In this document: in pieces, positions 28,572-39,417 of the stretch
How positions within the stretch are numbered: position 1 is the stretch's first letter
How the letters are laid out: every line of letters begins with the position of its first letter
Sequence record: NC_028927.1
Source: Escherichia phage slur02
Length of the DNA: 64,000 bases
Strand: one strand, 5' to 3'
Made by a program: the position numbers and the translations under genes
The notes under the pieces: model-generated
Databases searched by the model: none
Seen by the model: the letters and a program-made list of their open reading frames with translations, nothing else
What the model was told of the DNA's origin: nothing

Positions 28572-28898
28572 TCAATTAGAAAATAAATTTATCCAAGATT
28601 GTTCTTTAATTAAAAATGGCTCAGAATCATATGCCATTAAACTTTGGGTGATTAGTCCTTTAAAAGGTCCATCAATAAATTCCATGGTAAAATATGGAAT
28701 TTTATTCATTAACTGTGCGTTAGGAGCAGTGCACAAAACTCTGCATCCTTTGAATACACCTTTTTGTAATTTGTATTGCTTGGGATAAAATTCGCTTAAA
28801 ATGTTGTTATTTGCCAAAATTTCAAAATGATTTACCAATTTATTTTTAATAGTTTTTGGCGAAAAATAGAGATATTCGAAAAGCTGTGTGTCTGTCAT
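28572..28898 (-). CDS. Hypothetical protein
   Basis: ORF track ORF trimmed to Met 19. Confidence 0.45.
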
Positions 28899-29494
28899 TA
28901 TTGCATTCCGATTACGAAAAACTGTGGACGAGTAATACCACCAATGCAACATTTACTATTACAGCAGTAGTGTACAGTGTCAATATGGACGCTATAAATC
29001 TTATCCATATCAGGAGATTTGACAGGCTCATCAATTATATACAAAATTCGCGAAAGCGATAAACCTCTGAACTTGCTTCCTTTATTACCAATAAAACTGC
29101 GTACAGAATCAGTAAATAAACGAAAACGTATATCATCATTAGAATAACGCGAAAATTCCTTTTTAATGTTATTTGCAGAAATTTTAGCGTAAGCTGAAGT
29201 ATTAGAAAGAACAATAACTGTTCCGCCATCATACAGCCAATTAGCAGCAAAGTTAGTCACAGCAATTGATTTACCAGATTGACGTCCACCATCTATACGA
29301 AGTGTGCAGTACTGTTTAAGTAATTCTTCAAATGGCGGGATATATTCGTTTTTACAAATTTCTTCTACTCTAGCATCAGAATGGTGTGTAAAAGCATTCA
29401 TCAGGGATAGATACGGGCCAGTTAAAAATGTTCTCATATTTTCTCTCTTAATTTTTGGGCCATTCCATGGCACATGAGTTGTCCATTCCTGCAT
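28898..29494 (-). CDS. Hypothetical P-loop NTPase
   Basis: 198 aa; Walker A-like GGRQSGKS. Confidence 0.5.
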   Translation of the reverse strand: MQEWTTHVPWNGPKIKRENMRTFLTGPYLSLMNAFTHHSDARVEEICKNEYIPPFEELLKQYCTLRIDGGRQSGKSIAVTNFAANWLYDGGTVIVLSNTSAYAKISANNIKKEFSRYSNDDIRFRLFTDSVRSFIGNKGSKFRGLSLSRILYIIDEPVKSPDMDKIYSVHIDTVHYCCNSKCCIGGITRPQFFVIGMQ

Positions 29495-29572
29495 TACCCA
29501 TTACCGCGCTTTGGCTCGACCTTATCACAGGTTGGCGGGAATACCTCAAATGAGGTCCAGGCTGTTCCCATA

Positions 29573-30046
29573 TTATTTGAACGATTTAACGTACTGAATA
29601 GAACCTTTACTATTTACAAAGGCAATTTTACCATTTTTATTATACATGGTAGCAGTACGTTGATAACCATAAGTTTGTTTACCAGATTGATAACCAACTA
29701 ATGCGAAATTATCTTCGCCCATTTTATTCTGTTTAGCGCGAATGCGTTCATGACCATGTGCCATAAGAACCTTAGCATCACCGGTTGCAATGGATCGACG
29801 AGTTTTTTCATCTTCAACTGTATTAACAAAGTCGTCAAATGAATCAAATTTAGCATGAGATTTATTATACAGTTTTCCATCTACTGCATAATTATATCCC
29901 TGTACATCCATCTCAACTTCTGTACCATCATCCAATACAGCAGTGATTTTTTGACCTTTTTTAAATTTCAAAAGATCAGTAAAAGATTCAGCAATAATTT
30001 GAGAATTAATAGCTGCTTCAGTGATAAATTCTTGATATGTTTTCAT
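29573..30046 (-). CDS. Internal-protein-like capsid protein
   Basis: 157 aa; N-terminal MKTYQEFITEA resembles the T-even capsid targeting sequence cleaved by prohead protease. Confidence 0.6.
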   Translation of the reverse strand: MKTYQEFITEAAINSQIIAESFTDLLKFKKGQKITAVLDDGTEVEMDVQGYNYAVDGKLYNKSHAKFDSFDDFVNTVEDEKTRRSIATGDAKVLMAHGHERIRAKQNKMGEDNFALVGYQSGKQTYGYQRTATMYNKNGKIAFVNSKGSIQYVKSFK

Positions 30047-30062
30047 ATGATTCCTTTAATTT

Positions 30063-30380
30063 TTATTCTTTAGGAAAATTTTTAGAATATGCGTCGTAAA
30101 GCTTATTTCCAATACGACGAAAAACTCTAGCTGCAAAACGATTTTCTGGGTTTTTAATCATAATTTGCATCATATAAGTACCCGCGTCTGAAAGAGCTTC
30201 TTCATAGTACCCGTTAATTTCTTTAAGAGTCCTACGTTTACCACCAGGACCATCAACAGTGATTTTCCATTTACCTGTAGAAGTGCGACTCGGCGGCTCA
30301 ACTTGTTCAATCCAAATATAACCGCCTTCTACACGTTGTCCTGCAGCAGATTCTGCAATAAATTCTTGATATGTTTTCAT
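30063..30380 (-). CDS. Internal-protein-like capsid protein
   Basis: 105 aa; N-terminal MKTYQEFIAESA; basic. Confidence 0.6.
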   Translation of the reverse strand: MKTYQEFIAESAAGQRVEGGYIWIEQVEPPSRTSTGKWKITVDGPGGKRRTLKEINGYYEEALSDAGTYMMQIMIKNPENRFAARVFRRIGNKLYDAYSKNFPKE

Positions 30381-30389
30381 ATGTTTCCT

Positions 30390-30806
30390 TTAAATGTAAA
30401 TATTTTTACCGTAATACTTATACCAATGTGGTTTCATTAAAATTTTTTCATCAAGTCGTTGTTGACTCAATTTAATAGCTGATTTGCATGGATTATAATC
30501 ATTTTTCCATTCTACTGGAATATCGCTGATGTCAGGAACTTCAGTATCTTTTATACTGAACCCTCGTTTTAAGCATTCCGTTATAATGTCTAATTGACGC
30601 TTTCGCAAAAATTCTAACTTATCGTAAAAGAACGTAACATGACCAGAACCTAAAATAAACTCGGAAGATATTTTAAAATCTTTAACGCGCTTACCGTTTG
30701 CCACATGCTTACGAACTATACCAAAAACACGTGGCAATTCACGGTATTCTGCGATTAAATGTTGATCAGCAAGTTCAGATACTAAAGTCAAATTAATACG
30801 AGTCAT
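30390..30806 (-). CDS. denV: Endonuclease V (pyrimidine-dimer DNA glycosylase)
   Basis: 138 aa; [17 protein letters not shown]...WYKYYGK as recalled for T4 DenV. Confidence 0.9.
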
Positions 30807-30831
30807 TTTATCCCTCCAAGTAACTGTGAAT

Positions 30832-30865: not shown

Positions 30866-31834
<969 letters not shown>

Positions 31835-36670: not shown

Positions 36671-36746
36671 TGGTCGAGGCAGTAGGGATCGAACCTACGA
36701 CCTAGGACTTAGAAGGTCCTTGCTCTTCCTTCTGAGCTATGCCCCG
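36671..36746 (-). tRNA. tRNA-Arg (anticodon UCU), CCA encoded
   Basis: Manual cloverleaf: acceptor CGGGGCA/TGCCTCG, T-arm GTAGG-TTCGATC-CCTAC, anticodon loop CUUCUAA. Confidence 0.75.
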
Positions 36747-36750
36747 TAAT

Positions 36751-36826
36751 TGGGGTGACCGATGGGAGTCGAACCCATGACTACGAGAATCACAATCTCG
36801 AGTTCTACCAACTGAACTACGGCCAC
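36751..36826 (-). tRNA. tRNA-His (anticodon GUG), CCA encoded
   Basis: Manual fold: acceptor GTGGCCG/CGGTCAC, discriminator C, anticodon stem CGAGA/TCTCG with loop UUGUGAU; no G at -1. Confidence 0.6.
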
Positions 36827-36940
36827 ATTAATACCTACTCCAACAATCAAGATGTCTTCACACGAAATTAAGAGAAGAGTGATCAGTTCAACCCCTATAA
36901 TCGCGTCAAGTAGATATTAATGTGACAGTTGTCACAAATT

Positions 36941-37015
36941 TGGCGGACGTGATAGGATTCGAACCTATAACCAATCGCTTAACAGGCGATCGCTCTACCA
37001 TTGAGCTACACATCC
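36941..37015 (-). tRNA. tRNA-Asn (anticodon GUU), CCA encoded
   Basis: Manual fold: D-arm GCTC-AATGGTA-GAGC, anticodon stem ATCGC/GCGAT with loop CUGUUAA, T-arm ATAGG-TTCGAAT-CCTAT. Confidence 0.65.
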
Positions 37016-37019
37016 AAAT

Positions 37020-37106
37020 TGGTGGGGAGTGGTGGAGTCGAACCACCCGAGTCGCAATGACAATGAATTTACAGTCCACACCGCTACCTCTACGGGATAA
37101 CTCCCC
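37020..37106 (-). tRNA. tRNA-Tyr (anticodon GUA), long variable arm, CCA encoded
   Basis: Anticodon loop CUGUAAA, T-arm GGTGG-TTCGACT-CCACC, acceptor GGGGAGT/ACTCCCC. Confidence 0.6.
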
Positions 37107-37118
37107 TAATTCATAATT

Positions 37119-37193
37119 TGGTGGCCCTGGGTGGAATTGAACCACCATCTGGCGATTATGAGTCGCTTGCTTGAACCTTCCAGCTACAGGGCC
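37119..37193 (-). tRNA. tRNA with CAU anticodon (Ile in T4, or Met), CCA encoded
   Basis: Anticodon loop CUCAUAA; T-arm GGTGG-TTCAATT-CCACC; acceptor GGCCCTG/CAGGGCC. Confidence 0.65.
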
Positions 37194-37194
37194 T

Positions 37195-37270
37195 TGGTGC
37201 TGATTGACGGAATCGAACCGCCGACGTCCTCATTACAAGTGAGTTGCTCTACCTACTGAGCTAAATCAGC
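37195..37270 (-). tRNA. tRNA-Thr (anticodon UGU), CCA encoded
   Basis: Anticodon loop CUUGUAA; acceptor GCTGATT/AATCAGC. Confidence 0.7.
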
Positions 37271-37276
37271 AAAAAC

Positions 37277-37366
37277 TGGCGGAGGCGATAGGATTTGAAC
37301 CTATGAGTCGCCGGAGCGACTGCCGGTTTTCAAGACCGGTGCATTAAACCACTCTGCCACGCCTCC
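37277..37366 (-). tRNA. tRNA-Ser (anticodon UGA), long variable arm, CCA encoded
   Basis: Anticodon stem CCGGT/ACCGG with loop CUUGAAA; variable arm hairpin; acceptor GGAGGCG/CGCCTCC. Confidence 0.7.
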
Positions 37367-37368
37367 AG

Positions 37369-37442
37369 TCTCCATACAAGGATTTGAACCTTGGACCTCC
37401 TGATCCCAAATCAGGCGCTCTACCAAACTGAGCTACACGGAG
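37369..37442 (-). tRNA. tRNA-Pro (anticodon UGG), no encoded CCA
   Basis: Anticodon stem CCTGA/TCAGG with loop UUUGGGA; 3' end only 2 nt from tRNA-Ser 5' end. Confidence 0.7.
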
Positions 37443-37452
37443 TAAATTAAAT

Positions 37453-37526
<74 letters not shown>

Positions 37527-37531
37527 AAATT

Positions 37532-37618
37532 TGGTGCGAGAAGTGGGACTCGAACCCACAAGGAAATCATTCCGCAGCATTTTAAGTGCTGTGCCTTTAC
37601 CAATTTGACCATTCTCGC
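37532..37618 (-). tRNA. tRNA-Leu (anticodon UAA), long variable arm, CCA encoded
   Basis: Anticodon stem CAGCA/TGCTG with loop CUUAAAA; acceptor GCGAGAA/TTCTCGC. Confidence 0.7.
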
Positions 37619-37619
37619 G

Positions 37620-37692
37620 CTGGGAATAAAGGACTCGAACCTTTGCATCCTGGAATCAAAATCCAGTGCCTTACCAACTTGGCTAATTCCCA
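37620..37692 (-). tRNA. tRNA-Gln (anticodon UUG), no encoded CCA
   Basis: Anticodon stem CTGGA/TCCAG with loop UUUUGAU; 3' end 1 nt from tRNA-Leu 5' end. Confidence 0.7.
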
Positions 37693-38083: not shown

Positions 38084-38502
38084 CCTTCATCAACAATAGT
38101 ATGAGTATGGGCATTTACAATTTGCCACCAATCAAAGCGATTAGAACCATACATCGGTTTGTTTTCATTTTCTTTGATAATATCACGAAGTTCATCTTCA
38201 GTAGCGGCTTTCGCGATTAAATCAGCATATCCACCACGAGGATAATAATTATCACCTGCAAAAAGTAAAAAGTTTGGTTTAATGTTATTGAACTCTTCAA
38301 GAGTAATAACTGTTCCTGATGGTAGTTGAACAATCTCTACATATTTATATCCTAATTTTTGAGCAGCATCTACTGCTTCAAGCAAAGTATCATGAGCCCA
38401 TCCAATTTGACAACCTGGCTTTTCAGATGGATTAGCCTGATAATCCGCGTACACTTTATACATTCTATTCACCTTTAGAAATTTTATCCGTAACGACAGC
38501 AA
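38080..38502 (-). CDS. Hypothetical protein
   Basis: ORF track 140 aa. Confidence 0.5.
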   Translation of the reverse strand: MLSLRIKFLKVNRMYKVYADYQANPSEKPGCQIGWAHDTLLEAVDAAQKLGYKYVEIVQLPSGTVITLEEFNNIKPNFLLFAGDNYYPRGGYADLIAKAATEDELRDIIKENENKPMYGSNRFDWWQIVNAHTHTIVDEG

Positions 38503-38650
38503 TTAAACCAATTAAAAATGCTACTACAAGTGAAAAAACATTTTCTGCTGTAGTTAATAATCCGCATATAAATCCAACAAACATTGAAAAACTAAAAGCA
38601 GAAGCAGAAATTGCAATAGCAACATTTCGAATTAATTCACAGCGTTTCAT
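38465..38650 (-). CDS. Hypothetical small membrane protein
   Basis: 61 aa, single hydrophobic helix; promoter at 38679-38707. Confidence 0.4.
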   Translation of the reverse strand: MKRCELIRNVAIAISASAFSFSMFVGFICGLLTTAENVFSLVVAFLIGLIAVVTDKISKGE

Positions 38651-38678
38651 TTTATTCTCCTCAGTAGTTGATAGGGTA

Positions 38679-38707
38679 ATAGTATCACTACTAAAACCCT
38701 ATGTAAA
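38679..38707 (-). promoter_or_regulatory. Early promoter with conserved leader variant
   Basis: Minus strand GTTTACA-17-TACTAT then TACCCTATCAAC. Confidence 0.55.
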
Positions 38708-38720
38708 CAACTTTGTGAAA

Positions 38721-39417
<697 letters not shown>

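Follow-up and report, generated by a model that had tools for sequence, protein, structure and literature searches.

The locus lies on the minus strand of the window, by which we mean the whole 64-kb stretch of phage DNA that was analyzed, and it contains two genes, designated ip10 and ip4 below, between the endonuclease V gene denV and a homologue of vs.8 (Table 1). A sequence-only reading of this DNA had picked out two neighboring minus-strand open reading frames for a common MKTYQEFI leader, and both were recovered, one encoding a 105-aa protein that begins with MKTYQEFIAESA (Ip10) and the other a 157-aa protein that begins with MKTYQEFITEAA (Ip4). A six-frame scan of the 64-kb window detected an MKTYQEFI-type start in these two open reading frames only. 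The spacings on the minus strand are 9 nt between denV and ip10, 16 nt between ip10 and ip4, and approximately 135 nt between ip4 and vs.8.

Table 1. Features of the ip10-ip4 locus in window coordinates, in the direction of transcription (CTS, capsid targeting sequence; IP, internal protein)
Feature	Position	Strand	Remarks
Two late promoters TATAAATA	31374..31394	minus	Upstream of e; same pair in T4
e (lysozyme)	31360..30866	minus	Followed by a 59-nt spacer to denV
Early-promoter-like GTTTAC box and stem-loop	30807..30868	minus	Between e and denV; -18.3 kcal/mol, z -3.95
denV (endonuclease V), divergent allele	30390..30806	minus	Pfam Pyr_excise, phrog_1183
Repeat copy 1	30345..30405	minus	denV 3' end/cassette 5' UTR, ribosome site, ip10 leader
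ip10	30063..30380	minus	105 aa; very probably a CTS-bearing internal protein
CTS-coding segment of ip10	30351..30380	minus	MKTYQEFIAE, predicted gp21 cut after E10; 10/10 to the IPII/IPIII leader
Repeat copy 2	30011..30071	minus	ip10 3' end, ribosome site, ip4 leader; crossover region relative to GiZh-type phages
ip4 (ipIV)	29573..30046	minus	157 aa; very probably a CTS-bearing internal protein
Propeptide-coding segment of ip4	29987..30046	minus	MKTYQEFITE (cut after E10) and second I-A-E site (after E20), predicted
vs.8 homologue	28898..29437	minus	Conserved right flank of the IP slot; 98% identity to T4 Vs.8 residues 41-219

The likeness of the two gene starts extends to the DNA level. A 34-nt string covering the ribosome site and the leader, AAAGGAAWCATATGAAAACATATCAAGAATTTAT, occurs exactly twice (30024-30057 and 30358-30391), was found in none of 100 shuffles, and falls within a 61-nt direct repeat, the copies of which are 82% identical and lie 334 nt apart. 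The shared start is thus real and far beyond chance. Past the leader the two proteins diverge, as had been noticed from the sequence alone, and no similarity between them was detected by Smith-Waterman comparison against shuffles once the first 12 residues were removed.

The 1.5-kb region of the locus was 100% identical to the Escherichia phages slur04, slur11, and slur13 (Tequatrovirus), and matches were obtained in 635 phage records. An 18-kb stretch of the slur04 RefSeq record as well as both ends of the window coincided with the window base for base. Since slur04 equals the window in every stretch compared, its annotation is applicable directly, with window coordinates obtained by subtracting 17811 from slur04 coordinates. 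Genes for a head maturation protease and for head scaffolding proteins are annotated in slur04 at 84.8-86.9 kb, outside the window. An alpha-glucosyltransferase gene is located inside the window and, according to the slur04 annotation, a beta-glucosyl-HMC-alpha-glucosyltransferase gene just outside it; with these two genes, the phage makes glucosylated hmC DNA. Two adjacent Alt-like ADP-ribosyltransferase genes are annotated at slur04 104711-108865, also outside the window; Alt of T4 is another head protein that is packaged and injected.

Both proteins matched named families. Ip4 was aligned over its full length with Pfam DUF7412 (319.4 bits, 5.7e-96, residues 1-157 of the 158-position profile, at a gathering cut-off of 27 bits) and with phrog_3155, described as 'internal virion protein'. 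The earlier statement that the 157-aa body has no recognizable motif therefore needs qualification, as the body falls in a catalogued family, but DUF7412 itself carries no functional motif. Ip4 is identical to IpIV of phage T2, shares 99% identity with Ip4 of phage K3, and is called Ip4 or IpIV in the records of RB51, AR1, ime09, and GiZh. The family is small (14 clusters with 61-99% identity) and belongs to T4-like phages throughout; ip4 DNA is widespread, being found in 459 phage records that include Klebsiella T4-like phages at approximately 72% identity. Ip10 matched phrog_3966 and was 99% identical (96/97 residues) to Ip10 of phage Pol (CAA84455) and 71% identical to Ip10 of Shigella phage SP18, and 163 phage records contain its body, among them those of RB69 (ORF124c) and VR20 (ip10). 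Deposits of the 1990s already name both proteins (CAA84455 for Ip10 and Q38388 for Ip4), and a 1994 article by Repoila et al. is reportedly what later papers cite for IP genes of such kind. The 105-aa and 157-aa open reading frames are very probably ip10 and ip4 of the T-even internal protein (IP) class, residing in the denV-proximal hypervariable IP locus. Both genes already have names and catalogue entries, and the class to which they belong is understood in its mechanism.

The relation of the protein bodies to the classical internal proteins of T4 was assessed by several methods. Without the first 12 residues, comparisons among Ip4, Ip10, and T4 IPI, IPII, and IPIII gave z < 2 in all seven pairs (Smith-Waterman, 500 shuffles). 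BLASTP of IPII and IPIII to the two proteins aligned the first 12-17 residues only, with the single exception of a 98-aa alignment between IPII and the 157-aa protein at 27.6% identity, which was lost once the leader was removed. Identity of the leader is also the main source of the 91% hhalign probability against T4 IPII. Alignment to IPII and IPIII gave no full-length match for the body of Ip4 or Ip10, the leader alone aligning convincingly, and orthology to T4 IPI, IPII, or IPIII was rejected, since the similarity seen by BLASTP, leader-stripped Smith-Waterman, and hhalign is leader-driven only. That Ip4 and Ip10 might nevertheless be T4 ipII and ipIII orthologues rearranged into a different order, to which the same leader and neighborhood, the similar sizes (105 versus 100 aa and 157 versus 193 aa), and the label 'IpII internal head protein' on some database records of the 105-aa protein could point, is refuted at the sequence level by leader-free scores no better than those of shuffles and by the assignment of the two pairs to different PHROG and Pfam families, and we give it practically no credence.

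The bodies also proved distinctive in structural and profile searches. A search of solved structures by sequence with Ip4 and Ip10 gave no significant match; weak matches to filamin, CsgH, and a designed Kelch-like protein (SAKe) were dismissed as noise, and NCBIfam returned nothing above cut-off for either protein. AlphaFold2 models were of fair confidence (pLDDT 75.7 for Ip4 and 80.9 for Ip10), and Foldseek comparison of the Ip4 model with viral models found no match but Ip4 itself. An alignment profile of Ip10 run against 1.84 billion representative proteins recovered one genuine new relative, P0020, while three giant repeat proteins from the same search were rejected as spurious, their scores being summed over 8-14 low-complexity repeats. 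Neither a catalytic motif nor a known inhibitor fold was evident in the bodies of Ip4 and Ip10.

The leaders, in turn, match the T4 capsid targeting sequence (CTS), in support of what the sequence-only reading had proposed. T4 IPII and IPIII both start with MKTYQEFIAE, which is matched at 10/10 positions by Ip10 and at 9/10 by Ip4 (A9T, giving MKTYQEFITE). In work from Lindsay Black's laboratory that established the CTS mechanism, the first 10 residues of IPIII were sufficient for loading proteins into the prohead core, and by mutagenesis CTS residues 4 and 7 were found to control targeting, and cleavage by the gp21 prohead protease was found to depend on residues 8 and 10 and to be prevented by Asp at position 10 (PMC9026906). 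All of these experimentally important residues, Y4, F7, I8, and E10, are retained in both Ip4 and Ip10. A CTS-like start is also present in the 54-aa gp61.1 (MKTFKEFIKED in T4 and MKTYKEFIKED in slur04, with F/Y4, F7, I8, and E10), the homologue of which is the only other such start in slur04; gene 61.1 adjoins the primase gene, outside the window and distant from both IP loci.

The propeptide of Ip4 appears to extend beyond the CTS. Both E10 and E20 are invariant across 12 members of the Ip4 family (61-99% identity), and E10 is also invariant in the alignment of the Ip10 family. In an hhalign comparison, QIIAE/S of Ip4 was placed opposite STITE/A of T4 IPI with a probability of 57%, and the next ~30 residues aligned weakly. 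Because mature IPI has 76 residues and its precursor 95, the IPI propeptide comprises 19 residues (PMC3012670). In Ip4, gp21 probably cuts after Glu20 as well as after Glu10, and we infer from these alignments that maturation would leave ~137 aa of Ip4, beginning with Ser21, and 95 aa of Ip10, beginning with Ser11. Without their first 10 residues, the two proteins have a pI of 9.1-9.6 and are thus basic, like IPII and IPIII.

The promoter/stem-loop element between e and denV is homologous to those that precede ipIII and ipII in T4, where denV, too, has an element of this type in front of it; IP-associated elements of this sort have been mentioned previously (PMC2839356). No canonical late promoter TATAAATA was found between e and ip4, the sole upstream pair in the stretch being the one that precedes e, and consensus scans for sigma-70 promoters and terminators gave counts at shuffle level. 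Lacking promoters of their own and following denV at spacings of 9 nt and 16 nt, ip10 and ip4 probably depend for their transcription on the promoter/stem-loop in front of denV and on the late promoters in front of e; denV is probably co-transcribed with ip10 and ip4 immediately downstream.

At the other end of the locus, a G+C-rich piece of ~130 nt (29438-29572, minus strand) separates the ip4 stop from the conserved vs.8 start. Nucleotide-level conservation of this piece covers T4, T2, and GiZh and, for its core, reaches as far as RB69 and VR20. Any reading frame common to these phages is interrupted by indels (1, 6, and 7-9 nt), so that the N-terminus of the 219-aa Vs.8 annotated in T4 is probably over-extended. 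The piece was also considered as a structured RNA and rejected, having no Rfam match, no covariation, and an unremarkable folding energy.

The arrangement of promoters bears on a second alternative, according to which the shared 5' end is a mere duplicated translation-initiation region and the proteins are cytoplasmic, early, and unpackaged. No late promoter stands directly before ip10 or ip4, DNA conservation at the ribosome site and over the first codons includes synonymous sites, and our literature search gave no proteomic evidence, no report of virion proteomics of Ip4 or Ip10 or of work on 'DUF7412' having been found. However, T4 ipII and ipIII are equally devoid of a canonical late promoter of their own, and between genera the synonymous codons of the leader change while the peptide is retained, which argues that selection acts on the leader peptide. 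We consider an unpackaged, cytoplasmic pair of proteins very improbable. The identity of Ip4 and Ip10 and their packaging and processing as CTS-bearing internal proteins are, taken jointly, highly likely and at best close to certain.

The position of the two genes relative to denV was compared with that in T4 and other phages. In the direction of transcription, the order is e-denV-ip10-ip4-vs.8 in the window and e-ipIII-ipII-denV-vs.8 in T4. The sequence-only reading correctly held that the order differs from T4, and the plus-strand order denV-ipII-ipIII-e that it gave for T4 is accurate. It placed the genes upstream of denV on the minus strand; the strand is right, but the genes lie downstream (3') of denV in transcription, at lower plus-strand coordinates. 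The denV allele shares 78% identity with T4 denV in both DNA and protein, compared with 94-96% DNA identity in the flanks, and homology to T4 is regained precisely at the stop codon of ip4, the counterpart of the denV stop in T4 (BLASTN). Over 58 nt (30408-30351), the window shares 98% identity with the 5' UTR and leader of T4 ipII. At 30390-30408, the last six codons of denV (AAA AAT ATT TAC ATT TAA) equal the 5' UTR before T4 ipII, which indicates a common history of the 3' end of denV and the UTR of the IP cassette. In RB69, too, denV is followed directly by a CTS gene.

IP genes flank denV on one side or the other in T4, T2, GiZh, RB69, and VR20. In T2, e is followed by ip4 after the stem-loop downstream of e, and the 757 nt with denV and ip10 (window 30060-30816) are missing. 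GiZh and RB32-like phages have the order e-denV-ip4, RB69 has e-ORF127c-denV followed by three CTS genes, and VR20 has e-ip5-denV-ip10-CTS ORF-ip7. Junction-specific queries of 50,697 phage records yielded 164 denV-to-ip4 junctions, 98 from the e stem-loop to ip4, 53 from ip10 to ip4, and 25 from denV to ip10, the last query being as in the window. The e/denV/vs.8 region that holds ip10 and ip4 is one of two hypervariable IP loci, the other being the ipI locus by 57B; more than 30 IP variants have been reported (PMC2839356), and the plasticity of the two loci is documented (PMC2839356, PMC9026906). Among the variants of the e/denV/vs.8 locus, the order in the window is moderately common.

No other classical IP gene was found in the whole slur04 genome, ipI, ipII, and ipIII being absent. 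At the ipI locus (window 38465-39176), trna.4 follows 57B after ~70 nt with no IP gene between them, unlike in T4. A tRNA cluster at approximately 36671-37692 holds 11 tRNA genes, including those for His, Asn, Tyr, and Met, compared with 8 in T4, and has no segB homing endonuclease gene.

The leader repeat coincides with the points at which related phages differ. Aligned with GiZh, the window fell into two collinear blocks; the 49 nt of GiZh common to both blocks are the leader repeat. The GiZh junction has the copy-1 variant of the ribosome site, AAAGGAAACAT, upstream and ip4-type codons (ATC ACT GAA) downstream. The crossover accordingly maps within the 26-nt identical core, as copy-1 sequence lies on its upstream side and copy-2 sequence on its downstream side. 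Read from the aligned DNA, the difference between the window and GiZh is a clean gain or loss of a 334-nt unit. One ip4 body is found behind three contexts, namely a T4-ipIII-type UTR in T2, a T4-ipII-type UTR in GiZh, and the ip10 3' end in the window. Synonymous codons of the leader are shared within a genome, Thr3 being ACT throughout VR20 and ACA in T4 and the window. In our reading, this pattern reflects leaders that recombine or evolve in concert.

By analogy with T4 IPIII, the CTS formed by the 10 N-terminal residues would bind Ip4 and Ip10 to the scaffolding core of the assembling prohead, and the gp21 prohead protease would cut both proteins after Glu10 (I-x-E), the probable second cut after Glu20 leaving ~137 residues of Ip4, while Ip10 would keep 95. 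The basic mature proteins would then remain in the head with the DNA and be injected together. They may act early against a host defense, by precedent a type IV restriction enzyme of the GmrSD family, the substrate of which is glucosyl-hmC DNA. The locus itself would vary by gain and loss of whole cassettes via recombination inside the repeated ribosome-site-plus-leader DNA.

The precedent for such a function comes from T4, in which the injected proteins Ip1, Ip2, and Ip3 were each shown to inhibit a single, specific GmrSD type IV restriction enzyme, without cross-protection (PMC12373910). When ip4-10 were tested against GmrSD variants in the same study, no interaction proved reproducible, and T2, which carries exactly the same Ip4, is restricted by GmrSD-ECOR17 and GmrSD-ECOR21 (PMC12373910). 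On the analogy with the T4 proteins, injected anti-defense proteins are the most likely role of Ip4 and Ip10, a reading to which we assign slightly less than an even chance.

The alternative that survives best is a mainly structural role, in which Ip4 and Ip10 would fill the scaffold core, neutralize DNA charge, or influence head-assembly kinetics as IPIII does, rather than inhibit a defense. With ipI, ipII, and ipIII absent, Ip4 and Ip10 are the sole abundant CTS proteins of the phage, and a structural contribution like that of IPIII is possible particularly because other abundant IPs are lacking; T4 IPIII mutants are slower in head assembly and reach ~40% of the normal burst size (PMC9026906). 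Both the basic pI of the two proteins and the outcome of the published GmrSD tests (PMC12373910) are in line with such a role. On the other hand, the T4 IP genes are dispensable on laboratory hosts (PMC9026906), and most ip4-carrying phages have no ip10, denV-to-ip4 junctions outnumbering ip10-to-ip4 junctions by 164 to 53. Such gain and loss between phages, together with unrelated bodies, is more readily reconciled with a function in an arms race than with a conserved structural function, and we regard a mainly structural role as unlikely. Structural and anti-defense roles are compatible and do not exclude each other.

Returning to the anti-defense reading, we tentatively propose a broader scheme, in which the ribosome-site-plus-CTS repeat (34-49 nt) would be the crossover site of an integron-like cassette exchange that swaps injected proteins, and Ip4 and Ip10 would neutralize defenses outside the tested GmrSD variants; this we hold as possible but doubtful. 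Ip4 is found very widely (459 records) and Ip10 commonly (163 records), and all three T4 IPs are specific inhibitors of type IV restriction. A slur04-like phage, with Ip10 and Ip4 only and without Ip1-3, offers a clean background for target finding, and the targets bear on host-range prediction for therapeutic T4-like phages.

Among known systems, T4 IPII and IPIII share with Ip4 and Ip10 an identical or near-identical CTS, ribosome site, and 5' UTR, the same neighborhood, and the character of small basic proteins. They differ in their mature bodies, which are unrelated, in the location of their genes on the opposite side of denV, and in having known GmrSD targets, none of which has so far been assigned to Ip4 or Ip10. 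T4 IPI/IPI*, the inhibitor of GmrSD-CT596, has in common with Ip4 a two-step propeptide in which the CTS is followed by a second I-x-E site ~10 residues on. In the promoter/stem-loop (PeSL) cassettes of T4-type phages, the likeness lies in the GTTTAC box and stem-loop, which bound the window locus and recur between the T4 IP genes; unlike in those cassettes, the breakpoints among the window, GiZh, and T2 lie in the ribosome-site/leader repeat, and ip10 and ip4 have no stem-loop of their own.

Homologues of Ip10 occur in Pol, SP18, VR7/VR20, and RB69 (ORF124c), all within phrog_3966, and the metagenomic P0020 is a 149-aa CTS protein related to Ip10 with an extra N-terminal domain. The VR20 gene occupies the slot directly downstream of denV, as in the window, whereas in RB69 the CTS gene ORF125c sits between denV and the ip10 homologue, which, unlike the window copy, is C-terminally truncated or frameshifted (90 aa). 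The closest counterparts are Ip4/IpIV of T2 and K3, in which the protein is the same and only the upstream neighbor differs, ip4 of T2 following directly after e with no denV.
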